A stretch of DNA of 64,000 bases from a virus. The translations under genes were made by a program, and so were the position numbers. The notes beneath the pieces are model-generated. The model was not told where the DNA came from. It did not search any database and was given only the letters and a program-made list of their open reading frames with translations. Location: IMG/VR virus record IMGVR_UViG_3300042893_000684, positions 40,427 through 104,426 of that record, one strand, 5' to 3'. This document shows positions 7,629 through 59,206 of this stretch, one piece after another. The first letter of the stretch is position 1; each line of letters starts with the position of its first letter.

Positions 7629-7961
7629 ATGGCAACAACAGTATACGATGTTGAAGAAATTCAACTACAAAATGGCGCAACAGTTAAGCTCAAGCCTTTA
7701 ACAATTAAAGAGCTACGTGAGTTTATGAAGGTCATTCAAAGAACACAAGAAGTAACATCAGAAGATGAAACACTAACAATCCTTATTGAGGCCTGTGGAG
7801 TAGCACTAAAAAAGCAGCTTCCAGATCTTGTAGCAGACAAAGACGCATTTGAAGACACACTTGACGTTCCAACCATCAATCGCATTCTAGAAGTATGCGG
7901 AGGGATTAAGATGGACGACCCAAACCTACTAGCGGCAGCGGTTCTGGCTGGTCAGAACTAG
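7629..7961 (+). CDS. Tail assembly chaperone (G)
   Basis: Between tail tube and tape measure genes. Confidence 0.75.
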   Translation: MATTVYDVEEIQLQNGATVKLKPLTIKELREFMKVIQRTQEVTSEDETLTILIEACGVALKKQLPDLVADKDAFEDTLDVPTINRILEVCGGIKMDDPNLLAAAVLAGQN

Positions 7962-8290
7962 ATCTAGCCGCTTTAGAGGGGGAAGTATTTCTTCTAGGTA
8001 ATTGGAAAAATTACGAAGAACTAGAAGATAATCTTTCAATGCCAGAGATGGTCCAGACTTTTAAGTCAATGCAAAAAACGGAATCAGAAAAAAGGAAATT
8101 CCTAGCTTCGATTCAAGGTGTTGATTTAGATGAAAGCAGTAATAATGAGGAGGGATCATCCTTCGAAGATGTCAGAAGAAGAGCACTTGGTATAACCACA
8201 TCAGCAGATGATGTTGTTTCATTACAAGGTGGTCTTGCAGCAGAAGCTGGCTTTGGCATTAACGCAGGATTAGGATACCGAATAGAGTAA
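7919..8290 (+). CDS. Tail assembly chaperone T segment reached by -1 frameshift (G-T fusion)
   Basis: Slippery C CCA AAC at 7919-7925 in G frame; -1 frame open 7910-8290. Confidence 0.75.
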   Translation, partial: PKPTSGSGSGWSELDLAALEGEVFLLGNWKNYEELEDNLSMPEMVQTFKSMQKTESEKRKFLASIQGVDLDESSNNEEGSSFEDVRRRALGITTSADDVVSLQGGLAAEAGFGINAGLGYRIE

Positions 8291-8299
8291 CATATACAT

Positions 8300-11200
8300 A
8301 TGGCAGATAATTTAATCACCACCAATATTACCGCCAACGCAGACTTCACGAGTTTAAGAACTCAGCTTGCTGCGGTTACTGCCCAACTCGTAAAATTACA
8401 AGAAACAACGGCGGGAACTAACGCCAAACTAGCAAATCAAATTGCTGTAATGAATAAGTCCTTCGCAGAAACTATGCGATCAACGGGACAGTTTTCATCA
8501 CACTTTGTATCGCTTACATCAGACGTAGAAAAATTTGGTAGGAACCTAGATAGAGGAAGACTTAAACTAGGGGAATACTACAACGCCTGGAGTGGGCATA
8601 CAAAGAAAACAAGCAGCCTGATTAGAGACCTGGCCAAGCAGCAGGTAATGCTAGAGAATGCAATCATTCAGCCTATCGGCAAAAACGCACAAGGCCTAAT
8701 GCAATACAATGTTATGGTTGCAAAGGGCCTTGATGAAATAAAGAACAAGACGGCAATTGCAAGACAAGAGCTATCTATCATGAATAAGGTAATGCTCGAT
8801 GGATCTAATCAGCTTATCAATTGGGGTAAGAACACCCAGTGGGCTGGCCGTCAGTTAACAGTAGGACTAACAGTTCCTCTTGCAGCATTTGGAATGGCTG
8901 CACAAAAAGCATTTAGAGAAGCAGATCAAGAGCTTGTAAGACTTACAAAGGTTTACGGCGGACTAAGTGCAACATCATCTTCAGAGCTAGCAAAAGTAAG
9001 AAAAGATGTTTCCGAAACAGCAAGAGAAATTGCTGGAGCATACGGAATTGCATACAAAGAAACTATTGCATTAGCAGCTGACCTTGCTGCAACAGGACAA
9101 GAAGGCGGAAACCTTCTAGAAGCTACAAGACAGACAAGCAGACTTTCAATCCTTGGTGAAGTAGACAGACAAGAAGCAATGAAGGCAACTCTTGCTATTC
9201 AAAATGCATTTAAATCAAGTACAGATGAATTAACTCAATCTATTGACTTTCTTAACGCTGTTGAAAACCAGACATCCACTTCTCTACAAGATTTAGTTGA
9301 AGCAATCCCTAAAGCAGGCCCTGTTGTAAAGTCTTTAGGTGGAGATGTAAAAGATTTAGCATTGTATTTAACTGCAATGAAAGAAGGCGGAGTAAACGCA
9401 TCAGAAGGTGCTAACGCAATTAAGTCAGCAATGGCATCTCTTATCAACCCAACAAAGGTTGCAAAGGAAATGTTTTTTGGCTTTGGTATAGATATAGATA
9501 AGATTGTAACATCTAATGCGGGAAATTTAACTGAAACAATTACAGACCTTCAAGCAGCTTTAGACAGACTAGATCCACTAAGCAAGTCAAGAGCAATTGA
9601 ACAGTTGTTTGGTAAGTTCCAGTATGCAAGAATGTCAGCCCTATTTGAAAACCTAGGTAAAGAAGGATCTCAAACTCTTCAGGTAATGGATTTAATGAAA
9701 GCAAGCGCTACAGATCTTGCAAATATCTCTGCTCGAGAATTAACTATGATGACAGAGTCCGCTTCAGGACAATTTAAAAGAGCATGGGCTTCAGTCCAAG
9801 CAGACCTTGCTTCAGTAGGAGAACAATTTTTAAGAATTAGCACAAAGGTTTTAAATGTAGTAGATGGGATCATTAAGTTTTTCCAAGGACTTCCAGGTCC
9901 AGTTAAAACATTCCTTAACGCTCTTGGTGGACTAACAGCATTTGCTGGACCACTAATTATGTTAACTGGTGTTATGGCCAACTTTATTGGTTATGTTACA
10001 AAGGGAATATTCTCTTTAAGACAAATGGCTACAGGAGGACATGGGTTTAAGCTCCTTACTCCAGAAATATTAGCGGCAGATGCAGCAGCAAAAGGTCTTG
10101 CTACATCATTCTATTCAGATACAGAAGCAACAGTTGTATTAACAAATGCAGTAAATACTCTTGCAGCATCATTTGATAATCTTCAGGTAGCAGCATCTAC
10201 AGCGCAAGTTGCAGTGCAACCAAGCATCTCAACAGTTGCAGGCGGAGTAATTGCAGCGGGAACTCCAGGCGGAACGCCAAGATATGTTGATAAAAATAAT
10301 CCATTAATTGGAGATTCATACTCAAGAGATATGTCTCACATGATTCCTGCTCAAACACAACAGGCGGGGACAATATTTGGAACAGTTCCAGGAGCAGGAC
10401 CAGTAAACGTTAGAATTGGTAAAAACCCTCAAGCATATATGAACGCAGATCTTCCAAAGATTCCAGGTGTTACATCTGTAAACGGAACATCGACTGGTAT
10501 AGTTGCTCAAGAGGCAGCAAAGTGGCATGCAATGACAGCGGCAATTGCAATGCAATCAGAAGCAGAACTTAAAGTATTAAAGGCAGAGGTAAATGCTACA
10601 GGAACAATTACATCAAGTCTATCTAATTCTTATCAAGCCTTGCTTCCAGAATTTTCAGAAATTACAAGCATGGCTGCACAAGAAACTGCTTTAATCGTTA
10701 AGCAGCTACAGCAAAGCAAAATAACAGCAGACGAAGCAAGAATAAAAGTAATTCAATTAAATGCAACAGTTGAAGCAATGCTTGCTGAGACAGCTCAAAA
10801 GATTGCAGCTGGACAAGGAAGATCTGTAAACTTAACAACAGTTCCATTAACATCTCAACCTGTAGTAGACCCAGTAACTGGTAAATCAAATATGAAAGAA
10901 ATGTTTCATAAGGGTTCTACAAAAACATTAGTAGATAAAATTGCTAGAGCGCTAGGCGGAGTTAGAACTTCAGGTGCAGGATATAACATTGAAACAACAA
11001 AGCCTAAGTTTAATAAAGGCGGAATAGTTCCAGGAACTGGTAACACAGACACCTATCATACAATGGCCGAGCCCGAATCATTTGTAATTAATAAAGCTGC
11101 AACACAAAGAAACATGCCTACAATTAGCAAACTTATTGGTGGCACTCCAACATTTAGAAACACTGGAGGAATGGTTCCAGTAGTTTTAACTCCTGGAGAA

Positions 11201-14200
11201 GCAGTAATTCCAGCAAAAATTGCTAAGCGTAATCCAGAACTAATGTTGCAATTAAATGGTGGCCCAGGTAATACAACTGGTATGGGAAGACATCAAGGCG
11301 GAGGAGTTCACCCACACCCTCATGCAGGAAAGCCTATGACAGATGCTCAATACAGAAGAGCTCTTAAAATGTATTATGAATTTATTAACGATCCAAACTA
11401 TGAAGCCAATGTTCGTGCAAGATTTATTGCACTAGATGCTTCAGAGTATTTGGGAGTTGCCCCACAGATAGGAACTAAAAAAGCTATTGAAATAGCTACT
11501 GCTAATTTTGATGCTGCTAAGGACCTTAATGGATCTCCCGAAGACTGGATTAAAACTAGAACAGCACAGCTTGCTGCTTTTGACGAAAAATATTCTATGG
11601 GAGACAAAAGATTAGTAAAAGAAGGAAGAAGCGCAACGGCTTCTGGTTTAACTAGCGATAACTTTTTAAATAGAAATATGAACAGGGTTTTAAGATCAAT
11701 GAGCAGAAACCCATTATTTGCAGAAGCTCATGAAGATTTAAAGTCAATACCTAGAGCAACTGGTAAAATACAAGGCGGCGGAGGAAGATTAGTTGAAACT
11801 GCTAGAGGCCACGCATTTAGAAGATCTTTAATAGCACAACTAGGTGGAGTTGGCTCAAGAGGATTTGCAGGATTTGCTGCTATTATGCCTGCAGCATTTA
11901 ATACAATTGCTGCACAACTTCAGGGCAAAAATTTTCAACCAGATGTAATTCATTTAAAGAGGGCAAGTGCAATTGCTGACTTTGAAGAAATGGTAAGAAA
12001 ATCTGGAGTCCCTGGAAGCGTAGACGATGTAATACAAGCATTACAGTATGATACAAGATTTGTAGCTGCATCAGACAAGAAACCACGAGTTGCTCCTCCA
12101 TCACCAAAACAAAAAACTGCACTCAACATGTTTTTGCAAGCAATCTCTGCAGGAAAAGCTTGGATTCCAATTCGTGGAAAACTTGCTCTTGCAGGAGCGG
12201 TTAAATTAAATAAGGGTGGACAAGTACCAGGAAAGTTTGCACAAAGATTGTTTGGCGGCGGTAAAGCGTTGTTCTTAGGAATGCCAAGATCTATTAAGCA
12301 GGTTGAAGCCCAGAGAGCCGCAAAGGTTGCTATGGAAAAAGCAAGTCAAGCAGTTAAAGACTCTAGATTTAGCAAGACCCCAGTAACTGATTATGACGCT
12401 ATGCTAGAGCCAACATCAGGAAGAAGTTTCCCAGTATCTGGAATTGGTGGAGTTTATAGCAAGAACGGGGAAAAGGTTTTTGTTAAGCCAGTACTAGATG
12501 AAAAAGCAGCGCTTGCTGAGATAAGAGCAACTGAAATTGCTCGTGATGTTCACGGACTACAAACACCTAATCAAAGAGTTGTTGTAATGAGAGACCCAAC
12601 TGACAGAAGAGGATCTAGAACACTACTAGCTTTAGAGTCTAAGTACAATCCTGCTATAGCAAATCAAGATGGTAAATTTACAGAAGATCAATACTTTAGA
12701 CAGTTAGTTGCATCATCATTACGTGGCGACAAAGATTTAGGCAGGGGTAACCTTTCTGGGAACATACTTGCCGATGTAGGTCCAGCTGGGGTATTTTCAA
12801 CAGCCTCTGGACCAAGAGATTATTCTGCAACAATGCCTTCATTTAAACAACAAGCAATGATCAACTTGCTTGGAGTAAAAGGAAGCAGTACAAAGAAATT
12901 CTTTGCTGAAGCAACTTCAGATATTCCAAGAGGTATGACACCTGATCAATACAATGATCGCATGCTGCAAGAAATTGAATCTGCTCTCCCAAAGCTAAAA
13001 CAAACAATAGGTAGATTTGATTTAAACACAGAAGAAAAAGTTATTTACAATGCAATGATCACAAGACTATCTGATGCAAGAAGACAAACTTACAGAGATT
13101 TGCATGGAGTTCATTCATCAGTAACAATGTCTCCAGAAAAAACAATGACTCCAGCAGCAATTGCCAAAATGCTTGCAGCAGATGAATTGAAGCGCAGACA
13201 AAAGGGTCACTCTGTAAGCCTATCTGATAATGCATTTAAGACACCAGAAAATGGATTCAATATTGGCGGATTAATTGGAAACGTTCTTAAGGGTAAAGCA
13301 ATGCATAGAATTGGTGCAGGATTTGGCCCAACTGGAGCACCTAAGCCAAGTATGTATGAGTCAGCTCCATGGGGCGTGAACTCTCTATCTATTGAAATGG
13401 CCGACAAGCTATTTGCAAACACAGGTTTAAGAAAGCATACTCAAAAATTATTCTATGACAAGTTTGCGGCAGCACTAGCAAAAGAAAAACCTTACGGATA
13501 TGTAAAGATGCCAGATGGTAAATTAAAGAACGGACTCGAGCCAGACGTGCTAGACTCTGTAATAAGATCAGCCGCTTCAGATCTTGTTGGAGACAGAAAC
13601 ATAATTAAACAACTTTCTCCAATTGATAAAGATATTTTGCGAAACAAATATTTAAATTGGGATTCTAAAAAAGATACTCCGCTTACAGAATCTTTAAAGA
13701 AAATTATATTTGGTTTAGAAAAAAGAGAAATGGGCGGACCAGTTAACGCAGGTCAACCATACGTTGTGGGAGAAAAAGGACCAGAGCTATTTGTACCTAG
13801 AAATTCAGGAGGCATTGTTCCAAACGGATACATGAAGGGCGGAAACATTGCAATGCTTGGAGCCTCACTAGCACCAATGCTAATTGCGAGCAAGATTACT
13901 AATCCTTTACTTCAAACAATAATGCAGACGCTTTCATTTATCATACCTCAAATGATGATGACGGCAATGATGCAGACAAAAGCTGAAGGCGCACAAGGAA
14001 GAGTCGGTGGACTTATGTCTAAGATTCCAGCTTCTGCAAAAACTCCTATATTCTCTACAGCAAGAGGGACAAAAGTTGCTGGTGAAATGTTGGAAGATGG
14101 AACATACGCCAAGGGCGGAAGAATGCTCAATAGATACGGCGCAGCTCTTCAGAATTCTGCCAAGAGCGGGAGCGCAGTAACAAGAACCCTGGGAAGAATT

Positions 14201-16606
14201 GGAATGGGTCTTACAAGATTAAATGTAGGACTTGCTGTAGCAACAGGAGCTTTTATTCTTATCAATAAAAGAATAAGGGATCACAACGAACATTTAAGAG
14301 TTGGGGTAACACAATACGGACTAACAGAAGAAGCTGCCAAAAAGGCGGGACTTAAGTTTACTGATTACAACTCAAAGCTTGCAGATACTGTTAAAAACAT
14401 AGAAGCAATACGAGAAAGAAATCAGTTCCTTTATGAAAGCATGCAAGATGCTGGACTTCCTATATCCATGACAATTGAAGAGTATAAGAAGCTTAAGAAG
14501 GAAGTTAAGGAAGTATATACTGATCAAATTAAATTAATTAATCAGTCTAAAGAAAGTGAACTTCCACAAGTAGCAATAGACATTAAGACTGCTCTAATGG
14601 CTGCTGGGTTATCAGCAGATGAAGCAAGCAAGAAGATATTTACAATGTTTAAGCTTTCTGAAAAGGGAGAAAAGGCTGGTGCATTTACTGTAGGTAATCG
14701 TGCATTTAGAAATATTAAAACAGGACAAGATGCAGCCGAGGCTGCAATAAACACTTATACTACTGCCTCAGATGGTAAAGAGAAAGCACAGGCAGTAAAT
14801 ACAGGTCTAACTGCTATCGATGCAGGAATCATTGATATGATTGAGCAAAGTAAAAAAGCTGCTAGAGAAGACAAGAGTGGAAATACAAAAGTATTAACTC
14901 AGTATCAAGCCCAAGAAGCAATGCTTCAAAAACTAAATAAGCTAGAATCTTCTAAAGCTGTTCTTACTGCAAAAACTAGAGCGGAAATGATTAAGCAGAA
15001 TCCAGAACTTAAAAAGATTATTAATCCTATGGATACAATAGTTAGCTTATTTGAAAAGATGAATCTTGCAGCAAAGGGATTTACTGGAGATCTTTCAAAG
15101 TTAGGCGCTGAGGCTGTATCTACACTATCAAAAGTTGCAGATTCCATATCAGAAGCAACCGTTGCTGCGAACAAAGAGGGTCTATTAAAACAACAGTACA
15201 TAGATTTAAAGAAGCTAACAGATCAACAAAAGGCATTAATGCAAGCGGCCAAAGGACAAACTGCTCAGCAACAAATAAACACTAGAGAGCAGCTAAAGGG
15301 TTTGCAAAAGCAAATAGATGCTAATAATAAACTTGCAGAGTCAAGACTAAAAGCATTAGATGCAGCAAAGCAAGAGGGCGATATTGCAAGACAAATTGCA
15401 AAAGCACAAGCAGCATACGAAGCAGCTTTAGCAACAGGCAATACTGCTGCAGCACAACAAGCAAGCTTAGATATTCAAGGTCTGCAATCAGATCAGCAAT
15501 ACAACTCTCAAAAGAAAGCAATTGAAGATGCTCTTAAGCTAGCCAATGCTCCTCTTGAGGCTAAGATAAAATTAATTAATGACGGACAACAAAAGATGTC
15601 AGACAATGCATCAATTGCTGCAGAAAAATTGGGCTCATTAAATGCAAGGATTGATAAGCAAAAACAAAAGATTGATGATGTTAATCAAGCAATGGTCACC
15701 TTAGCACTAAATGCAGCTGCTGCAGGAAAAAGTATAGAGGATTATATTAAGTTTGGAACTGATGAAGACCCAAATGCTGGTAGAGAGGCTGCTGCAGGCC
15801 TTGTTGGAGCAGTAAGAACAGCAAAGCCTGGAACAGTTCCTGAATTTAAACAACCAACTCATCCAAAGGGTGTTAAAACTCCAATTGATGTAGGTACCCA
15901 AGCCCTGGGAATAATGGGCGGGGTAGAAGGAGCTATTACAAAAGGATTAGCCTCAAAGGGTATTCAAATGGGCAGCGGAGATATTATTATTAATGGAAAG
16001 AAGATGGATGTTGGCCAATCAAATGCTACTGCTAAGATTAGTTCTGTTCCTACAACTTTAGGCGTAACCGCTGGAGCCTATGCAGGATCTACAATTATTC
16101 ATCCATCTACACTTATGGCAGCAGGAGCATCTCAAATATCTGATGGCAAACGAGGCTCTACTTGGGTTGGTGTTGAGTTTGTAGATAAAAATGGTAAAAA
16201 GTGGAAGGTAACTTCTGATGCAGGGAGAGCTGGTCTTAACGTTCAAGCAGTAAAAGCTGGTTACGGAACAATGAAGCTTAATCCAAATGTTCCTACTATT
16301 GTCGGAGACCGTGGACCAGAAATGGCATTTGGCGGAATGGTTATTCCTAATATGGCTAAGGTACCATATGCTTCACCTAGATACGATATTAAGCAAGCAG
16401 CAAAAATGTTTGAACCAATGCGTGATTCAGGGGTAGGACAAGGTGTAATTAATTATACACAACATATTCATGCCTCTCCAGGAATGAATGAGGATCAATT
16501 AATAAGTAAAGCAAAGGTTGCAGCATATGAATTCTTGCAGGCCAATATAAAAACTAATGCTAAAATGAAGGGCAACCCAATGAATGTAGGTATTAAAAAC
16601 ACATGA
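8300..16606 (+). CDS. Tape measure protein (2768 aa) with inserted cargo domains incl. HipA/PI3K-like kinase
   Basis: N-terminal TP901-type helical TMP region; follows chaperones; kinase motifs at aa 1381-1492. Confidence 0.9.
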   Translation: MADNLITTNITANADFTSLRTQLAAVTAQLVKLQETTAGTNAKLANQIAVMNKSFAETMRSTGQFSSHFVSLTSDVEKFGRNLDRGRLKLGEYYNAWSGHTKKTSSLIRDLAKQQVMLENAIIQPIGKNAQGLMQYNVMVAKGLDEIKNKTAIARQELSIMNKVMLDGSNQLINWGKNTQWAGRQLTVGLTVPLAAFGMAAQKAFREADQELVRLTKVYGGLSATSSSELAKVRKDVSETAREIAGAYGIAYKETIALAADLAATGQEGGNLLEATRQTSRLSILGEVDRQEAMKATLAIQNAFKSSTDELTQSIDFLNAVENQTSTSLQDLVEAIPKAGPVVKSLGGDVKDLALYLTAMKEGGVNASEGANAIKSAMASLINPTKVAKEMFFGFGIDIDKIVTSNAGNLTETITDLQAALDRLDPLSKSRAIEQLFGKFQYARMSALFENLGKEGSQTLQVMDLMKASATDLANISARELTMMTESASGQFKRAWASVQADLASVGEQFLRISTKVLNVVDGIIKFFQGLPGPVKTFLNALGGLTAFAGPLIMLTGVMANFIGYVTKGIFSLRQMATGGHGFKLLTPEILAADAAAKGLATSFYSDTEATVVLTNAVNTLAASFDNLQVAASTAQVAVQPSISTVAGGVIAAGTPGGTPRYVDKNNPLIGDSYSRDMSHMIPAQTQQAGTIFGTVPGAGPVNVRIGKNPQAYMNADLPKIPGVTSVNGTSTGIVAQEAAKWHAMTAAIAMQSEAELKVLKAEVNATGTITSSLSNSYQALLPEFSEITSMAAQETALIVKQLQQSKITADEARIKVIQLNATVEAMLAETAQKIAAGQGRSVNLTTVPLTSQPVVDPVTGKSNMKEMFHKGSTKTLVDKIARALGGVRTSGAGYNIETTKPKFNKGGIVPGTGNTDTYHTMAEPESFVINKAATQRNMPTISKLIGGTPTFRNTGGMVPVVLTPGEAVIPAKIAKRNPELMLQLNGGPGNTTGMGRHQGGGVHPHPHAGKPMTDAQYRRALKMYYEFINDPNYEANVRARFIALDASEYLGVAPQIGTKKAIEIATANFDAAKDLNGSPEDWIKTRTAQLAAFDEKYSMGDKRLVKEGRSATASGLTSDNFLNRNMNRVLRSMSRNPLFAEAHEDLKSIPRATGKIQGGGGRLVETARGHAFRRSLIAQLGGVGSRGFAGFAAIMPAAFNTIAAQLQGKNFQPDVIHLKRASAIADFEEMVRKSGVPGSVDDVIQALQYDTRFVAASDKKPRVAPPSPKQKTALNMFLQAISAGKAWIPIRGKLALAGAVKLNKGGQVPGKFAQRLFGGGKALFLGMPRSIKQVEAQRAAKVAMEKASQAVKDSRFSKTPVTDYDAMLEPTSGRSFPVSGIGGVYSKNGEKVFVKPVLDEKAALAEIRATEIARDVHGLQTPNQRVVVMRDPTDRRGSRTLLALESKYNPAIANQDGKFTEDQYFRQLVASSLRGDKDLGRGNLSGNILADVGPAGVFSTASGPRDYSATMPSFKQQAMINLLGVKGSSTKKFFAEATSDIPRGMTPDQYNDRMLQEIESALPKLKQTIGRFDLNTEEKVIYNAMITRLSDARRQTYRDLHGVHSSVTMSPEKTMTPAAIAKMLAADELKRRQKGHSVSLSDNAFKTPENGFNIGGLIGNVLKGKAMHRIGAGFGPTGAPKPSMYESAPWGVNSLSIEMADKLFANTGLRKHTQKLFYDKFAAALAKEKPYGYVKMPDGKLKNGLEPDVLDSVIRSAASDLVGDRNIIKQLSPIDKDILRNKYLNWDSKKDTPLTESLKKIIFGLEKREMGGPVNAGQPYVVGEKGPELFVPRNSGGIVPNGYMKGGNIAMLGASLAPMLIASKITNPLLQTIMQTLSFIIPQMMMTAMMQTKAEGAQGRVGGLMSKIPASAKTPIFSTARGTKVAGEMLEDGTYAKGGRMLNRYGAALQNSAKSGSAVTRTLGRIGMGLTRLNVGLAVATGAFILINKRIRDHNEHLRVGVTQYGLTEEAAKKAGLKFTDYNSKLADTVKNIEAIRERNQFLYESMQDAGLPISMTIEEYKKLKKEVKEVYTDQIKLINQSKESELPQVAIDIKTALMAAGLSADEASKKIFTMFKLSEKGEKAGAFTVGNRAFRNIKTGQDAAEAAINTYTTASDGKEKAQAVNTGLTAIDAGIIDMIEQSKKAAREDKSGNTKVLTQYQAQEAMLQKLNKLESSKAVLTAKTRAEMIKQNPELKKIINPMDTIVSLFEKMNLAAKGFTGDLSKLGAEAVSTLSKVADSISEATVAANKEGLLKQQYIDLKKLTDQQKALMQAAKGQTAQQQINTREQLKGLQKQIDANNKLAESRLKALDAAKQEGDIARQIAKAQAAYEAALATGNTAAAQQASLDIQGLQSDQQYNSQKKAIEDALKLANAPLEAKIKLINDGQQKMSDNASIAAEKLGSLNARIDKQKQKIDDVNQAMVTLALNAAAAGKSIEDYIKFGTDEDPNAGREAAAGLVGAVRTAKPGTVPEFKQPTHPKGVKTPIDVGTQALGIMGGVEGAITKGLASKGIQMGSGDIIINGKKMDVGQSNATAKISSVPTTLGVTAGAYAGSTIIHPSTLMAAGASQISDGKRGSTWVGVEFVDKNGKKWKVTSDAGRAGLNVQAVKAGYGTMKLNPNVPTIVGDRGPEMAFGGMVIPNMAKVPYASPRYDIKQAAKMFEPMRDSGVGQGVINYTQHIHASPGMNEDQLISKAKVAAYEFLQANIKTNAKMKGNPMNVGIKNT

Positions 16607-25585: not shown

Positions 25586-26386
25586 ATGAGTAACGATTTA
25601 AAATGGATGATCTCATCCGACCAGCAATTCCCGTATCAAGATGACAAGATGATTGCCCTTTGGTTTAAGGTAATGAAGTGGTTTAAGCCTGACGTTGTTG
25701 ACTACCTCGGTGATACAGATGATCAAGCATGCTATAGCAAGTACACAGAAGGACGCTCAGCAGAGTTCTTGAACCTTCATAAGACTGACAGTCGAGATCT
25801 TATTGTTCCAATGATGCGCCATGAAGCAAAAGGTGCAAGAGATTTTTATACTAAGACAAGAGAGATGTTGCCAGAAGCGCAACTATTTTCAGCACTAGGA
25901 AACCACGACGTTAGAATTTTTAACTACGTAGATGCAAAACTTCCTGACTATATTAATGAGGTTACTCCAGAAGCTCTTTGGGGATTAGACTCTTTAGGCT
26001 ATGAATATATTCACTATAACGAACTACCTAAGCGCCGATTCGGAGATATCCATGTACACCACGGACTATCAATTGCAGCAACTGGTTCCGTTCGCAAGGA
26101 CATGGAAGACCTACAGGTATCTTTAATTAGAGGTCACTCACACAGAATTGCATCACACCTAGTTACTTATGAGTTAAGAAACGGCGGAGAAGGTGAAACA
26201 CTTCGAGGCTACGAACTAGGACATATGTGTGATGAAAAGGGCCCAGGAATGAAGTACATGCAGCACCACGACTGGCAAAAAGGATTTGCTATCGCTCACA
26301 TTGTCAACGATTATCCACATATACAGATGATCCACGTGGCGCCTGATTACTCATGCGTTGTTGACGGGAAGCTGTTTACCTTATAA
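25586..26386 (+). CDS. Calcineurin-like metallophosphoesterase
   Basis: SDxQ, LGD..D, GNHD, HG, GHSH motifs. Confidence 0.8.
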   Translation: MSNDLKWMISSDQQFPYQDDKMIALWFKVMKWFKPDVVDYLGDTDDQACYSKYTEGRSAEFLNLHKTDSRDLIVPMMRHEAKGARDFYTKTREMLPEAQLFSALGNHDVRIFNYVDAKLPDYINEVTPEALWGLDSLGYEYIHYNELPKRRFGDIHVHHGLSIAATGSVRKDMEDLQVSLIRGHSHRIASHLVTYELRNGGEGETLRGYELGHMCDEKGPGMKYMQHHDWQKGFAIAHIVNDYPHIQMIHVAPDYSCVVDGKLFTL

Positions 26387-39306: not shown

Positions 39307-41098
39307 GTTTACCGACCTTATCGACATGCTTGATGGAGAGGAGTTCGATGAAAAACCAGTCGATCTTAAAACGTTTGTTAGAAGTCCAGAATACCTTGGG
39401 CTTCCAGAACTTTCCGACTATCAGTACACGCTTATCGAAAAAAGCTCGCAAATTTATAAAGATTCAACCCTTATCAAATTATTTGGAGAAGAAGAAGGAA
39501 GAATAAGATTTAAACAAACTGCAAATGAAGTAGTTGCTCAGCTTGGCAAAGGTTCAGGAAAAGATTACTGCTCAACAATTGCAGTTGCCTATATAGTATA
39601 TTTATTATTGTGCTTAAAAGACCCAGCCACATATTACGGAAAGCCTCCAGGAGATAGCATTGATATCATTAATATTGCTATTAACTCTCAGCAGGCAAGC
39701 AACGTATTCTTTAAAGGATTTAAAACAAGAATTGAAAAGTCCCCTTGGTTTGCAGGAAGATACACAGACAAAGCAGCAGAAGTTAAGTTTGATAAAGCAA
39801 TAACAGTACACTCAGGCCACTCAGAGCGTGAAGCCTGGGAAGGATATAACGTTATCGTTGTTATTCTAGATGAGATTTCTGGCTTTGCAATTGAAAATAC
39901 AACAGGGCACGACCAAGCAAAAACAGGTGCGGCTATATATGACATGTATCGTGCATCAGTAGACTCTCGTTTTCCAGACTTCGGCAAAGTTATTTTGCTT
40001 TCATTCCCCAGATACAAAAACGATTATATTCAGCAAAGATACAATGCCGTCGTAGCTGACGTTGAAACAGTTGTTCGTGATCATCGGTTTAAGATGGATG
40101 AAGATCTACCAGATGGAACAGTAGGAAATGAGTTTGAGATTCAATGGGAGGAAGACCATATCCTTTCATATAAAATTCCTAGAGTATACGCTTTAAAGAG
40201 ACCAACTTGGGAAGTTAATCCAGTAAGAAAGATTGATGACTTTAAGGTTGCATTTTTTACAAACCCTATGGACGCTTTATCACGTTTTGCATGTATGCCA
40301 CCTGATGCAGTTGATGCATTCTTTAAGTCAAGAGAAAAGGTTGAGAAGGCTTTTAATAAAGCCCACCTAGCAGTAGATAACTTTGGTAGATTAGAAGAAT
40401 GGTTTATACCAGATCCAGATAAAGAATACTTTATACACGTTGACCTTGCTCAAAAACATGACCACTGTGCAGTTGCAATGGCTCACGTTAACAAATGGGT
40501 TAACATAAAAGTAACAGATACCTATTCACAGCCTGCACCAATTATTGAAATAGATGCAGTAAGATTTTGGACACCAACAAAAGATAAGTCTGTAGACTTT
40601 ACAGAAGTTAAAGACTATATTCTTTCATTAAAAACAAGAGGATTTAAAATTCGTGTATGTACCTTTGACAGATGGAATTCACATGATATGATGCAACAAC
40701 TAAAACAATACGGCATCAATACAGAAATTCTGTCTGTCGCTAAAAAACATTACGATGATATGGCAATGGTTGTTGCCGAAGAAAGAGTAGTCGGACCACA
40801 CATACCATTGCTTATAGACGAGCTATGCCAGCTTAGAATTATGAGAGACAAGGTTGACCACCCAAGAAAAGGCTCTAAGGATTTAGCGGACGCAGTGTGC
40901 GGATCAATTTATAATTCAATAAGCAGGAGCAAATTTGATTCTAATCAAGAAGTTAATATACACACCTATGAGTCAATGAGTTACGACAATGATTTTGGAA
41001 CAGAGGCAGACGGAGAAACAAATTCTTATAATATGATTAGGGCTCCAAGAATGCCAGAAAATTTAAAAGACGCAATGGACAGGATGCAAATAATATGA
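39296..41098 (+). CDS. Terminase large subunit
   Basis: GKGSGKD Walker A, VILDE Walker B, HVDLA...D, DH....SKD.ADA. Confidence 0.85.
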   Translation: MSFEFTDLIDMLDGEEFDEKPVDLKTFVRSPEYLGLPELSDYQYTLIEKSSQIYKDSTLIKLFGEEEGRIRFKQTANEVVAQLGKGSGKDYCSTIAVAYIVYLLLCLKDPATYYGKPPGDSIDIINIAINSQQASNVFFKGFKTRIEKSPWFAGRYTDKAAEVKFDKAITVHSGHSEREAWEGYNVIVVILDEISGFAIENTTGHDQAKTGAAIYDMYRASVDSRFPDFGKVILLSFPRYKNDYIQQRYNAVVADVETVVRDHRFKMDEDLPDGTVGNEFEIQWEEDHILSYKIPRVYALKRPTWEVNPVRKIDDFKVAFFTNPMDALSRFACMPPDAVDAFFKSREKVEKAFNKAHLAVDNFGRLEEWFIPDPDKEYFIHVDLAQKHDHCAVAMAHVNKWVNIKVTDTYSQPAPIIEIDAVRFWTPTKDKSVDFTEVKDYILSLKTRGFKIRVCTFDRWNSHDMMQQLKQYGINTEILSVAKKHYDDMAMVVAEERVVGPHIPLLIDELCQLRIMRDKVDHPRKGSKDLADAVCGSIYNSISRSKFDSNQEVNIHTYESMSYDNDFGTEADGETNSYNMIRAPRMPENLKDAMDRMQII

Positions 41099-43441: not shown

Positions 43442-45385
43442 TTGACTAGGACTAAAGCATGGAGATTATCATTAGCATTCATTTTAATGTTTGGATGGCT
43501 ATTTCTCACACCTGCTTATAGCGATGATCCACTTTCAGTTGCCGCTGAAGAGATAGCAGAACTAAACGAAAAGGTAACAAATCTTACAGAAGAGGCAGAT
43601 ACTAGAGCCTTAATAAATATAGCAGAAGACAAATACGATGCAGCAGTAGCATCAAAATCTGCTAGGGATAGCGCATATGCTGCATATAATGAGGCGGTAG
43701 AAGCAGAAACAACAGCATTGTCTGAAAAAACAACAGCTCAATCAGCAGTAGATGGGCAAACGGTAACAGTTGCTACAGCCTTAGAAGATAAAAACGATGC
43801 TCAAGATGTATTAGATATAGCAAACATAAATCTACAAACAACGCAATCTACTGTTCAATCCGCTGGTAATCAGGGACTGGAATATACTGTTTATACCTTA
43901 TTAAGAAATGGTAGCCAAGCAGTGACTGGATCTGTTATATGTACTGGTATATGGAATTCAAATTTAATGAACCTCCCAGTTTGCGGATATTACGAAGATA
44001 TCATTGTTAAGTTTACTGGAAAAATTACAGTTCCTTCAGACTGGACTTCAGTATATTTTGCAGGATATACAGATGATGGTTTTAGGATGTATGTGGACGG
44101 AAACCTTGCCGTTGATAACTGGGTAGAACAAGGATCGACATGGAGTCCTTACTCACCAGTTTATGATGTTAGTCAAGATAAAACTTTAGATGTAGAAATA
44201 TGGTGGTATAACGGTGGCGGCCCAGGCTCGTATCACCTTGGCTGGTCAATTCCAGGCGGGTGGACTGGTGCGGGATGTGCTTATACTGGAGGATGGGGTA
44301 TAGGATTTAGTTGTAATTTAAATACATTTTCTTATGGCGTAGGTGCAACACAATCACAAATTGATGCATACAATGCAGCAGTAACTGCACAGGCGACGGC
44401 ACAGACAGATTACAATACTAAGCTTGCTACATACAATACAGCAAATTCTACATTAACCACATACAGTCAAACATTAACAACTAAGACTAATACCTATAAT
44501 ACTGCAGTAACAAATACAGCAAATGCATTAGCTGCTAAAAATAATACACAGTCAACTTATGATCAATCTATTATTAATTTAAATAATGCAATAGATGATG
44601 CATGGGAATTATATAATGAAACTTGGCAATTTGAAGAACAACAAAGAGTTGCTGCAGCAATAGCTGCTGCTATGGCAAATCAACCGCAACCAACTCCAGA
44701 TGCAACAACTGATCCTACGCCTGAACCTTCTCCTGAGCCATCACCTGAACAAACTGAACCAGACGATTCCACTCCAACTCCAGATTCTGAAACCACAGAT
44801 GAACCGACACCAGATCCAACTCCTGAGACAGAGCCCACTGATGAGCCTTCACCAGAGCCTTCACCTCAGCCATCGGATATAGATCAAGAGCCAACTCCTG
44901 AACCAGAGCCAACTCCTGCTGAACCTTCTGAAGAACCATCTACCAATACTATCACAGAAGAGACAGCAAACCTAATTGCAGATTTAACAAGCAAAGATAC
45001 ATTAACTAAATTAACTCCAGAACAAAAAACGGCTGTTGCGGAAGGACTTGGAATTAGAGCATCAGAAATAGCAAAGGTGGCAGCATTAGCTGCTACTGAT
45101 AAAAATTTAGCAACAGCTCTAGAAGAATTCGGTGATAGAATTAAAGAAAACGCTAGTGCTCCAATGCCATATACATTAGCAGATGCAACAACAGAGGTTG
45201 CCACAGAAGCATTTTTATCAGACCCAATTGGAGCTATTGCGGATATTGATTTTGAGAAATTATTTAGCCCATCAGAATGGGGTAAGGATATGACGGATGA
45301 TCAAAGAGAAAAAGCACAAGAGGTTGTAGTGCCAGTAATTATTGCAGGAAATATAGTGGCAGCAGCCATGACAAGGAGGATATAA
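43442..45385 (+). CDS. Exported protein: signal peptide, coiled coil, PA14-like domain, Pro/Glu/Thr linker, C-terminal hydrophobic segment
   Basis: TDDG.R.YVDG..DNW..Q and WYNGGG PA14 signature. Confidence 0.7.
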   Translation: MTRTKAWRLSLAFILMFGWLFLTPAYSDDPLSVAAEEIAELNEKVTNLTEEADTRALINIAEDKYDAAVASKSARDSAYAAYNEAVEAETTALSEKTTAQSAVDGQTVTVATALEDKNDAQDVLDIANINLQTTQSTVQSAGNQGLEYTVYTLLRNGSQAVTGSVICTGIWNSNLMNLPVCGYYEDIIVKFTGKITVPSDWTSVYFAGYTDDGFRMYVDGNLAVDNWVEQGSTWSPYSPVYDVSQDKTLDVEIWWYNGGGPGSYHLGWSIPGGWTGAGCAYTGGWGIGFSCNLNTFSYGVGATQSQIDAYNAAVTAQATAQTDYNTKLATYNTANSTLTTYSQTLTTKTNTYNTAVTNTANALAAKNNTQSTYDQSIINLNNAIDDAWELYNETWQFEEQQRVAAAIAAAMANQPQPTPDATTDPTPEPSPEPSPEQTEPDDSTPTPDSETTDEPTPDPTPETEPTDEPSPEPSPQPSDIDQEPTPEPEPTPAEPSEEPSTNTITEETANLIADLTSKDTLTKLTPEQKTAVAEGLGIRASEIAKVAALAATDKNLATALEEFGDRIKENASAPMPYTLADATTEVATEAFLSDPIGAIADIDFEKLFSPSEWGKDMTDDQREKAQEVVVPVIIAGNIVAAAMTRRI

Positions 45386-49734: not shown

Positions 49735-50694
49735 ATGAATAAAAAAATAACTATGGCTCTAGTGGCCTTAATGCTTACTGCACCAATCACGGCAACTGCT
49801 GCTCCTAAGAGTAATCTTAAGAACACATCTTTGCCAGCACCTACAATAGCAATCCTGGATTCAGGTATTGACATGTCACAACAAAAGATTAAAGACCGTG
49901 TAGTGTATGAGGTATGCTTAATTGAAATTATTGAAGGCTCTACATCACGTTGCCCTAATGGACAAACATCTATGGAAGGTCCTGGGTCAGCGACATTGCC
50001 TGTATCAAGACTTCTGCTTGGCGGATTTGATCATGGCACACTTATGGCAGATCAAGCTATTCAGACAAACCCTAACGTAAAAATTGTATTTATTAGAATT
50101 GTTGGTCAACGTGAAAACGGTGCAAGAGAATATACTAATGAAGCAACTGTTTATAATGCCCTACAGTGGGTTATTAACAATCAGTCTAAGTTTAATATTC
50201 AATCAGTTGCAATGGCACAAGGCTCACACAATGTAGGTGCTGTTGGAACAGATTACTGTCCAAAAACACCAACTACCGTTGATAAAGTAAAGTCTTTAAA
50301 CTCACTAGGTGTCGGCGTATTTTTTCCAGCAGGAAATAATAGCGACTATCAAAGAGTAAACTGGCCTGGATGTATCCCTGAAGCAATTACAATGGGTGCA
50401 ACACTGCCATCAGGATCTATTGGATTTTATTCAAACTATGACCCACTTTTGTTAGACTTCTATGCTCGTGGAACAACAGTTTTATACGGGCTAAATGCAA
50501 AGAAAACTAATTTTGCAGGAACTTCAGCATCTGTTCTAGTCGGAGCAACTTCGTGGGCAACTGTTAAGTCTGTTAAGTCTAACTTAAGCTATTCAGAAAT
50601 GTATAGTTTAATTTCAAGGACTTCTTCTATTACAAAAAGCTCAAAGATTAGCAAGGGAAATCTTATTAATCTACAGGCGGCCTTGAATGGCTGA
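49735..50694 (+). CDS. Secreted subtilisin-like (S8) peptidase
   Basis: Signal peptide; ILDSG, HGT, AGN, GTS catalytic motifs. Confidence 0.8.
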   Translation: MNKKITMALVALMLTAPITATAAPKSNLKNTSLPAPTIAILDSGIDMSQQKIKDRVVYEVCLIEIIEGSTSRCPNGQTSMEGPGSATLPVSRLLLGGFDHGTLMADQAIQTNPNVKIVFIRIVGQRENGAREYTNEATVYNALQWVINNQSKFNIQSVAMAQGSHNVGAVGTDYCPKTPTTVDKVKSLNSLGVGVFFPAGNNSDYQRVNWPGCIPEAITMGATLPSGSIGFYSNYDPLLLDFYARGTTVLYGLNAKKTNFAGTSASVLVGATSWATVKSVKSNLSYSEMYSLISRTSSITKSSKISKGNLINLQAALNG

Positions 50695-57488: not shown

Positions 57489-57692
57489 ATGAATGTATCT
57501 AAGCAAAGATCAGCGCTAAAGGCTGTTACATGGCGTTTAATAGGAACGGCAGATACATTTGTTATATCTTGGTTGATAACTAAAGAACCAGTTACAGCAG
57601 GAGCAATCGCAAGCTTTGAGGTAATTACAAAAACAATCCTTTATTACTTTCATGAGCGTGGATGGAACAAAGTTAAATGGGGCAGAAAGTAA
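57489..57692 (+). CDS. DUF2061-like membrane protein
   Basis: RS..KA.TWR..GT.DT, LYY.HER.W. Confidence 0.7.
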   Translation: MNVSKQRSALKAVTWRLIGTADTFVISWLITKEPVTAGAIASFEVITKTILYYFHERGWNKVKWGRK

Positions 57693-59206
57693 TGCCAAAA
57701 AACATAGTAGTTGTAGGTGGTGGAACTGCTGGATGGTTAACCGCTTTGTATGCAAAAAAACAATTACCAAATGACAACATTACTGTTATAGAGTCAGCAG
57801 AAATAGGCATACTAGGTGCAGGAGAAGGCTCTACTCCAATGCTTGTTCAATTCCTTGAAGATTTAGGAATATCAATATCAGATTTAGTAAAAGATTGTGA
57901 TGCAACAATAAAGAATGGAATTAAATTTACTAATTGGAACAATGATAATAATTTCTACTACCATGGGTTTTATAACGATTCAAAAATTGGCAATGCTTTT
58001 TATAGCCATTTAAATCCTAGTGCAGCAAAAGTAGCAAGCATTGCGATAAACAATGGTTTAAAAGAAGTAGACTTTCCAGAAAATGTTTCAGAAAAAAATA
58101 AAGTTCCTATTGTATTTAGAGCAAAAAAACATAAAAATAAACTTTTAGATTTTGAAAACTTATCAGGTATATCAGTTCACTTTAATGCCACAAAGCTAGC
58201 AAATAAACTAAAAGAAGTTGCGCTAAGTCGTGGAATTAAAATTGTAGAAGGCAAAATAAAAACAGTAGGCCTAAGTGACAAAAATTATGTAGAGTCTTTA
58301 GTTTTAGAAAACAATGAATCAGTTCAATGTGATTTTGTTTTTGATTGCAGTGGATTTCATAGGCTTATTATTGGCAAAACATTTAATTCAAAATGGAAAA
58401 GCTATAAAGAATTTTTACCAGTGGACGCTGCTATACCATTTTTTACTAATATGACAGATGAAATTCCACCATATACAGAAGCAATCGCAATGAAGTATGG
58501 ATGGATGTGGAAGATCCCATTGCAGAATAGGTTCGGGTGTGGCTACGTATACGATTCATCTTTAATTTCAGAGCAAGAAGCAGTAGCAGAAATAGAAAGT
58601 ATGTTAGGTTATGCTCCAACGTATCCTAGAAAAGATAAGGGTGGATTTAAGTTTGATGCTGGTTGCTACGAAGAAACCTGGGTAAATAACTGTGTCGCAA
58701 TCGGATTAGCAGGAAACTTTATAGAGCCTTTAGAGGCAACTTCTATTTTTGTAAGCATGGTTCAGATAGGGACATTTTTTAATAACGCAGATCACATTAT
58801 TGGCAGCTCAGATGATTTAAGAGAAAAGTTCAATAAAAATATACTTAATCTTAATACAATTATTTCTAATTTTATATATTTTCATTATATGACATTAAGA
58901 AAAGATACTGAATTCTGGCAAAAATTTTCTTATGAAAATGCGCCAGAAAAGATAAAAGAAAAGATTAACACCTGGAAAGATAGACTTCCTAATGATCTTG
59001 ACAATCAAGATGTGTGGCAATCCGTAAGCTGGCTTGCCGTGGGGTCTGGGCTAAACTTAATAAATAAATCTATAGCGGCCACTTATATTGACAATTTAGC
59101 TGAATATAAAGATTCTATTGAATTGTATAATCAATTTCTTTTTTTACGGGACAATATGATTGAACTGTGCATAGATCATAAAGAGTTTTTGGAGTATGTG
59201 AAATGA
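57692..59206 (+). CDS. Flavin-dependent tryptophan-halogenase family protein
   Basis: GGGTAGW, G.GE.S.P, K.GI.F, DCSGF, WMWKIP, FIEPLEAT. Confidence 0.85.
   Translation: MPKNIVVVGGGTAGWLTALYAKKQLPNDNITVIESAEIGILGAGEGSTPMLVQFLEDLGISISDLVKDCDATIKNGIKFTNWNNDNNFYYHGFYNDSKIGNAFYSHLNPSAAKVASIAINNGLKEVDFPENVSEKNKVPIVFRAKKHKNKLLDFENLSGISVHFNATKLANKLKEVALSRGIKIVEGKIKTVGLSDKNYVESLVLENNESVQCDFVFDCSGFHRLIIGKTFNSKWKSYKEFLPVDAAIPFFTNMTDEIPPYTEAIAMKYGWMWKIPLQNRFGCGYVYDSSLISEQEAVAEIESMLGYAPTYPRKDKGGFKFDAGCYEETWVNNCVAIGLAGNFIEPLEATSIFVSMVQIGTFFNNADHIIGSSDDLREKFNKNILNLNTIISNFIYFHYMTLRKDTEFWQKFSYENAPEKIKEKINTWKDRLPNDLDNQDVWQSVSWLAVGSGLNLINKSIAATYIDNLAEYKDSIELYNQFLFLRDNMIELCIDHKEFLEYVK

Follow-up and report, generated by a model that had tools for sequence, protein, structure and literature searches.

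One of the closest described systems to the element considered here is CotH, a kinase that phosphorylates structural proteins of the spore coat during assembly, and whose catalytic and metal-binding aspartates in Bacillus subtilis are D228 and D251 (PMC7821199). Another is PI4KIIalpha, for which the nearest structures have been found to be CtkA, the Golgi casein kinase (Fam20) and actin-fragmin kinase (PMC3974213). Some polyvalent proteins of phages and plasmids, large and made up of many domains, have a kinase domain fused into them; they are packaged and delivered with the DNA and are predicted to modify host proteins. The polyvalent kinase family has lost its whole C-terminal kinase subdomain and occurs in MuF-type proteins of Verrucomicrobia/Chlamydia and Bacteroidetes elements (PMC5512222). 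Tape measure-like proteins of the Sle1 type have been described as modular effector carriers with exchangeable domains in actinobacterial contractile injection systems (PMC13277306). Here, a kinase-like module is described in the tape measure protein (TMP) of an uncultured siphophage of about 100 kb, in a window of 64,000 nucleotides (positions 40,427 to 104,426 of virus record IMGVR_UViG_3300042893_000684, which totals 104,426 bp and has an estimated completeness of 96%). The G+C content is 38%.

TMPs are usually viewed as rulers or DNA conduits that carry, at most, wall-degrading motifs. The proposal favoured here is that residues 1325-1636 of this TMP are a catalytically competent phosphotransferase of the protein kinase-like (PKL) fold, carried by the TMP and acting after entry, to which a probability of about 0.5 is assigned. 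The parts of this proposal differ in strength: judging from the predicted model, the PKL fold is almost certain and phosphotransferase activity very likely, while delivery to, and action upon, a newly infected host has about an even chance.

The kinase-like module of the tape measure protein

The module is part of a single large gene, whose product is a phage TMP by profile match, position after the tail chaperones, great length and synteny. Pfam PhageMin_Tail (PF10145) matches residues 239-438 (E 1e-26), and PHROG tape-measure families span residues 18-850, the best being phrog_10030 (E 3e-116), whose alignment to the TMP is confined to profile positions 1-764 of 2105. The region first singled out (12263-13255) corresponds to residues 1322-1652. 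The start of the module was set at a conserved FLGMP(R/K)S motif and its end at the drop in model confidence. The features are as follows, where counts refer to a MAFFT alignment of 133 homologous domains, represented by sequences no more than 50% identical to one another.

8300..16606, + strand: TMP gene, 2768 residues, a single uninterrupted open reading frame (ORF) with no internal stop in its translation
12272..13207, + strand: predicted kinase-fold module, residues 1325-1636 (about 310 residues, 35 kDa), delimited by the AlphaFold2 (AF2) model, structure matches and the ratio of nonsynonymous to synonymous substitution rates (dN/dS)
12440..12457, + strand: Gly-rich loop GIGGVY, residues 1381-1386 (G1384 in 133/133, Y1386 in 129/133), preceding strands 63-67 and 70-77 of the model
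12485..12487, + strand: K1396 in VFVKP (VFVK being 1393-1396), predicted beta-3 ATP-binding lysine (133/133), in strand 70-77
12518..12520, + strand: E1407, predicted helix-C glutamate (133/133), in helix 80-97 of the model
12722..12751, + strand: catalytic loop RGDKDLGRGN, residues 1475-1484, in which D1479 is the predicted base and N1484 the predicted metal ligand, from conservation and its position after helix 141-154
12773..12781, + strand: D1492-V-G, predicted equivalent of the metal-binding DFG (ADVG being 1491-1494; D1492 in 133/133, G1494 in 129/133)
12803..12817, + strand: A-S-G-x-R, residues 1502-1506, a family-specific motif 3' of DVG (A1502 in 132, S1503 in 129, G1504 in 114 and R1506 in 113 of 133)

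The preliminary description of this DNA had listed five kinase motifs in canonical order, and all five lie in the 2768-residue ORF exactly at the residues it gave, with GDKDLGRGN itself covering residues 1476-1484 from nucleotide 12725. It had also named the conservation of the Lys-Glu-Asp-Asn-Asp set as one of the points on which its reading depended, and each of these residues is kept in 132 or 133 of the 133 domains, so the motifs are no chance occurrence. G1384, K1396, E1407, Q1468, N1484 and D1492 are invariant; within the catalytic loop D1479 is found in 132, L1480 in 130, R1475 and D1477 in 127 each (the remaining six having Asn in place of D1477) and K1478 in 119, the remaining three positions between D1479 and N1484 being variable. 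On the basis of predicted secondary structure and conservation, K1396 and E1407 would form the beta-3 lysine/helix-C glutamate pair. The replacement by glycine of the histidine usually found two positions after the catalytic aspartate was likewise noted correctly for this copy, and across the family this position is most often Ser (54), Gln (30), Gly (23), Ala (12) or Lys (9), with His outside the five commonest residues. Two further motifs are specific to the family: G1374-x-S1376-F-P before the Gly-rich loop, with Ser1376 in 132 of 133 domains, and A-S-G-x-R, which is possibly part of a substrate site.

The module is under strong purifying selection. When compared with seven relatives (module identity 73-98%), its dN/dS is 0.05-0.15, as against 0.11-0.46 for the flanks, taken as 700 residues on each side; for five of these seven relatives, the lowest value is that of the module. 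No ORF of 100 residues or more lies on the opposite strand at the kinase region.

Predicted fold and structural neighbours

An AF2 model of the module built with 43 homologues has a mean predicted local distance difference test score (pLDDT) of 87.8 and a predicted template modelling score of 0.82, and is confident over model residues 8-315; a model made without an alignment reached a pLDDT of 47 and was discarded. Its elements are as follows, in model residues.

60-65: Gly-rich loop
63-67 and 70-77: two strands, the second with K75 (K1396)
80-97: helix with E86 (E1407)
104-110 and 120-127: two further strands
141-154: helix
154-163: catalytic loop with D1479 and N1484
171: DxG, with D1492
194-313: helical C-lobe

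Because this order is kinase-like and the assignment of the Lys, Glu, Asp, Asn and Asp residues fits the predicted order of secondary structure, the reading as an atypical kinase holds. The preliminary description had made its reading depend on prediction of a kinase fold, and what was obtained is a confident model with match lists made up of kinase folds. Foldseek against the PDB listed only kinase-fold matches (kinases and the PAN3 pseudokinase), with Helicobacter pylori CtkA at the top (E 4.9e-4). VIA-align was run against 48,161 representative chains and again on Foldseek's list, with the best 50 matches listed each time. In the first run CotH (5jda) led with Z 11.9 (216 residues aligned, root-mean-square deviation 3.9), followed by CtkA (10.0), MavQ (9.9), PI4KIIalpha (9.7), the Golgi casein kinase of the Fam20 type (9.1) and HipA (9.1), with ATM, Vps34, Fam20, actin-fragmin kinase and HipT further down. 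On Foldseek's list the order was CtkA (10.8), PI4KIIalpha (10.0), PI3Kdelta (9.4), MavQ (9.3), LepB (8.9) and HipT (8.8). All 50 listed matches in each search are PKL enzymes, Z is at least 8 for 16 representative chains, and the structural alignments reach about model residue 288. According to the tool's notes, Z 7-8 is a typical best score for models that lack a clear Foldseek match; the values of 9-12 for this model exceed that level, and the uniformity of the match list appears the stronger argument. By its model, the module belongs to the same structural cluster as PI4KIIalpha, in which protein and lipid kinases are mixed.

Among predicted viral structures in BFVD, the best matches (E 2e-5 to 1e-3) are large multi-domain phage proteins named as ADP-ribosyltransferase, portal-fusion or PI3K/PI4K-domain proteins, pointing to fusions of kinase-fold modules with several virion scaffolds. 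A feature search of the ESM Atlas returned mostly unnamed clusters, the only named ones being LepB_N clusters, a lead that comes without an alignment.

The profile and structure search proposed in the preliminary description gave a divided result, where the listed PDB structure matches are all kinase-like and the profiles are empty. Residues 1322-1652 match nothing in Pfam or NCBIfam (hmmscan, E up to 10), nor do the homologues when scanned member by member against Pfam; phmmer and the family profile find nothing among PDB chain sequences, and megablast and tblastn with the domain find nothing in 50,697 GenBank phage records. For HipA, there is no Pfam match at E up to 10, and hhalign of the family profile against Escherichia coli HipA gives a probability of 0.18%; HipA-family features are also missing, as the loop is not D-x-H-x-x-N and the domain, internal to a TMP of 2768 residues, is not paired with HipB/HipS. 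For CotH, the Pfam model (PF08757) has no match in the protein or in the genome translated in all six frames, and a profile of 19 actinobacterial CotH domains, when compared by hhalign with the 133-sequence profile of the family, scores a probability of 0.13%. For PI3K/PI4K, PF00454 has no match, and the loop reads RGDKDLxxxN, without His, as opposed to GDRHxxN. The loss of the C-lobe that marks the polyvalent-protein kinase family is not seen either, since confident helices are predicted at model residues 141-154 and 194-313. What the module does have are the features of the PKL fold as a whole, namely two lobes, the Lys-Glu pair, and Asp with Asn at +5 followed by DxG. The lack of membership in a named family at the sequence level, together with the missing His, points to a new family within the kinase fold, a PKL-fold enzyme by prediction that lies outside the named families in sequence and is described in no database. 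The earlier label of a HipA/PI3K-like atypical kinase in a virion protein is therefore kept as to an atypical kinase within the TMP, while "HipA" proves too narrow a name: CotH and CtkA lie nearest in structure, the scores of HipA are lower (Z 8-9), and no profile links the module to HipA, PI3K/PI4K or CotH.

Family, host and genome context

A HMMER scan of 1.84 billion representative proteins found at least 163 clusters of the family, 140 of them at E <=1e-30, and nearly all members are proteins of 2000-4400 residues. At least 315 IMG/VR contigs encode a relative. Only two contigs match in 185,579 prokaryotic species genomes (one genome each), both from metagenome-assembled genomes (MAGs) labelled Bifidobacterium and Acidimicrobiaceae, where the match lies inside TMPs of 2912 and more than 3019 residues. 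A profile search of proteins of 182-1511 residues for a stand-alone or cellular form returned none, the matches being annotated TMPs, unnamed proteins and fragments from short contigs, with source names of "hypothetical protein" or "tape measure protein". An N-terminal TMP core is common to 115 of the best 150 homologues, and the others are mostly fragments truncated at the N-terminus. From these sequences, the family is a cassette found inside giant TMPs, across a large group of uncultured siphophages with genomes of roughly 100 kb that probably infect Actinomycetota.

The cassette does not always stand in the same place. In homologues it is usually found at about residue 720, directly after a Gly-Gly/PGEAVIPA block, and opens with FLGMP(K/R)S; other sites are at about residues 1000-1370 or at residue 2837. 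Pairwise identities of core and kinase are moderately correlated (Spearman 0.47, 108 proteins), which is consistent with a cassette that usually descends together with its TMP and is sometimes moved. An internal translation start at the Met of FLGMP was considered and rejected, as the sole purine-rich stretch, AGGA, abuts the ATG and leaves no usable spacing. Two further features of this TMP bear on the comparison.

8300..10849, + strand: N-terminal TMP core, residues 1-850, with a hydrophobic segment at residues 541-563 (homology, hydropathy)
11018..11269, + strand: Gly-Gly/"PGEAVIPA" TMP motif block, residues 907-990 (upstream sequences of 40 homologues, motif list)

The TMP core is 31-36% identical to TMPs of phages of Streptomyces (127 records), Gordonia (105), Rhodococcus and Tsukamurella, and the matching TMPs of Streptomyces, Gordonia and Rhodococcus phages are without the kinase. 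The structural genes form a standard siphophage tail module in the order known from Streptomyces phage Wofford: upstream of the TMP gene are those for a head protease, the capsid protein and a tail tube protein with an Ig domain, then two small ORFs that resemble chaperones, while minor tail, tail and fibre proteins are encoded downstream. The small ORF pair just 5' of the TMP gene (7629-7961 and 8039-8290, + strand) belongs to PHROG families of unknown function and stands in the position of tail assembly chaperones, which is the same in Wofford. The Wofford TMP (9142-15396, 2084 residues) can be aligned over residues 151-671 only and has no kinase module. Since TMPs of the Wofford type are without the kinase, the module is an addition to a kind of TMP that functions without it. 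Judged by eye, a C-terminal stretch of the Wofford TMP appears to resemble M23 peptidase motifs; if so, one TMP lineage would carry different enzymes in different phages. The TMP relatives, the two Actinomycetota MAG labels and the G+C content make a low-GC actinobacterium (Actinomycetota) the likely host.

In most homologues the GGxVPG...PGEAVIPA block directly precedes the kinase, while here some 300-330 residues lie between the two, made up of a segment earlier named "cargo 1" and a short linker. This segment (11306-12205, residues about 1003-1302) and "cargo 3" (13274-13724, residues about 1659-1808) are non-coil segments flanking the kinase, and neither has a Pfam or PHROG match. They occur together with the kinase in 9 and 16, respectively, of the best 150 homologues, so that both look like independent optional inserts, and "cargo 3" as an obligate partner of the kinase is unlikely at 16 of 150. 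Motifs of the types Gly-Gly-x-(V/I)-P-G and (V/I)GE(K/R)GPE repeat along the TMP (residues 1306-1311, 1812-1845 and 2678-2690), and such Gly-Gly motifs may be module boundaries, processing sites or binding sites. The idea of a polyprotein delimited by Gly-Gly was set aside, as no evidence of cleavage was found and the block before the kinase recurs in most homologues as a conserved motif of the TMP.

Elsewhere in the window, an ORF of 266 residues just past the tail-fibre genes (25586-26386, + strand) matches the PHROG metallo-phosphoesterase family phrog_221 (E 1e-52) and has no Pfam match; its product could be a protein phosphatase opposing the TMP kinase or, alternatively, a nuclease-type esterase. 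For an ORF of 509 residues (57677-59206, + strand), the PHROG match (E 2e-104) is to a family with the annotation tryptophan halogenase, which is unusual among auxiliary enzymes of phages. Among the genes of the non-structural half are a subtilase-family (Peptidase_S8) ORF (49735-50694, + strand) and a PA14-domain ORF of 647 residues (43442-45385, + strand).

Proposed action and comparison with known systems

TMPs fill the tail lumen and leave it first, and for this reason the domain probably travels in the virion and is released once the host envelope is reached. In the sequence of events proposed here, the domain would be incorporated into the tail as a segment of the TMP and, at 35 kDa, be held unfolded or extended in the lumen, to refold after ejection. 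The exit of the TMP at the start of infection would take the kinase domain along to the host envelope where, on reaching ATP at or inside the cytoplasmic membrane, it would phosphorylate a host component and so aid establishment of the phage. The target is most likely a protein, as the nearest structures, CotH and CtkA, are Ser/Thr kinases. Given the predicted fold and the retention of every catalytic residue, the virion probably carries a ready-made kinase. Injection of such a kinase to modify host or defence proteins, as put forward in the preliminary description, is likewise a proposal.

Several points weigh against this proposal. A folded domain of this size, present in three copies, should not fit the lumen of a siphophage tail, which would imply unfolded storage or removal during assembly, and TMPs can be processed. 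No sequence profile (Pfam, NCBIfam, PDB, hhalign) links the domain to a kinase of known substrate. Across the family, mean identity is lower in the module (44%) than in the TMP core (56%). The missing His and the variable spacer between D1479 and N1484 mean that details of catalysis may differ. Finally, the phage is uncultured.

The main rival, which avoids the lumen problem, is a kinase active late in the producer cell, where its substrates would be structural proteins of the phage, host proteins or the TMP itself; the domain may then be buried or trimmed. ATP is certainly available there, the closest structure, CotH (Z 11.9), is a morphogenetic kinase of structural proteins, and Ser1376, which lies beside the Gly-rich loop and is kept in 132 of 133 domains, could speculatively be a site of autophosphorylation. 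Such a role is nevertheless considered unlikely: it has no obvious need of a fusion in the middle of a TMP, but hundreds of phages retain this fusion, and the search for a free form among proteins of 182-1511 residues found none; cultured relatives assemble tails of this kind without the kinase; and no Ser-rich repeat substrate like those of CotB/CotG is seen in the TMP translation.

Delivery at entry with a lipid or envelope glycan as substrate, for example phosphatidylinositol, where a local change of the membrane or wall would help the TMP conduit or the passage of DNA, is judged quite unlikely. Phosphatidylinositol occurs in Mycobacterium, Corynebacterium and Streptomyces, and the host is probably an actinobacterium, although the low-GC freshwater host may not make this lipid. 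PI4KIIalpha (Z 9.7-10.0), MavQ (9.3-9.9), LepB (8.9) and PI3K/Vps34 (8.5-9.4) rank beside protein kinases, and LepB_N clusters are the sole named ones in the ESM Atlas, but the two best structure matches are protein kinases and the Atlas matches are leads without an alignment. TMPs insert into membranes, and this one has a hydrophobic segment at residues 541-563, but neither a membrane-binding insert nor a basic activation loop was identified. As the nearest structures of PI4KIIalpha itself are CtkA, Fam20 and actin-fragmin kinase (PMC3974213), the class of substrate cannot be read from structure in this part of the fold.

A more specific version of delivery, in which a kinase stored unfolded in the lumen refolds at the membrane and phosphorylates a lipid (such as phosphatidylinositol) or a membrane-proximal protein, easing DNA entry or blunting early defence, is very unlikely in that exact form; if true, it would provide the first demonstrated delivery of an ATP-dependent effector via a TMP, and would also define a new kinase family. 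Several PKL-fold proteins are not phosphotransferases, and other chemistry (AMPylation as in SelO, glutamylation as in SidJ), or a role as an inactive TMP spacer or folding unit, is improbable and the least likely of these possibilities, for while the catalytic loop is unlike that of every named family and TMP length sets tail length, so that extra residues might in principle be favoured just for the length they add, the full phosphotransfer set (Lys-Glu, Asp with Asn at +5, DxG) is kept across 133 diverged copies, as would not be expected of a spacer or pseudokinase, the dN/dS of 0.05-0.15 is below that of most flanks, and SelO and SidJ are not among the 50 matches listed by either VIA search, which is weak evidence.

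If the proposal of a delivered, active kinase is true, the TMP of hundreds of environmental phages would bring an enzyme of the signalling type to the host ahead of all phage gene expression. The PKL superfamily gains a sequence family missed by Pfam, NCBIfam and the source annotations, and a structural question is raised, namely how a narrow tail tube can store an enzyme of 35 kDa and let it out again. Should delivery be confirmed, the arrangement as a cassette suggests that TMPs could be programmable protein-delivery scaffolds in actinobacterial phages. In full-text searches of the literature, no report was found of an ATP-dependent kinase within a TMP.

Among known systems, Bacillus cereus CotH (5jda) is the best structural match and has, like the module, an atypical PKL fold with a catalytic and a metal-binding Asp. 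It is also an enzyme built into a large structure that assembles itself, as the TMP kinase module would be; however, CotH is not a TMP insert but a separate protein of some 40 kDa, and the spacing between its two Asp residues is 23, as opposed to 13 in the module. CtkA (JHP0940; 3akj, 3akk, 3akl) of H. pylori resembles the module as a compact atypical Ser/Thr kinase of about 280 residues (Z 10.0-10.8), but is only 13-15% identical, has no profile match, and is a stand-alone bacterial protein rather than a phage virion protein. PI3K/PI4K, MavQ and LepB align over about 200 residues (Z 8.5-10) and have in common with the module the layout of Lys, Asp-x4-Asn and DxG; the Legionella effectors MavQ and LepB are, in addition, kinases delivered from one organism into another, while the His of DRHxxN and the large helical accessory domains of PI3K/PI4K are missing from the module. 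HipA and HipT (Z 7.8-9.1) have the PKL fold with catalytic residues in the same order, whereas the module has no HipB/HipS partner, no His two positions after the Asp, and is internal to a structural protein.

The kinases of polyvalent proteins differ from the module in that the latter retains its C-lobe, which is predicted to be helical (model residues 141-315), and belongs to a TMP, a class of protein never mentioned in the description of that family (PMC5512222). Sle1-type modules, and those embedded in TMPs, act on the cell wall or are uncharacterised, as opposed to the predicted kinase fold carried by the TMP described here.

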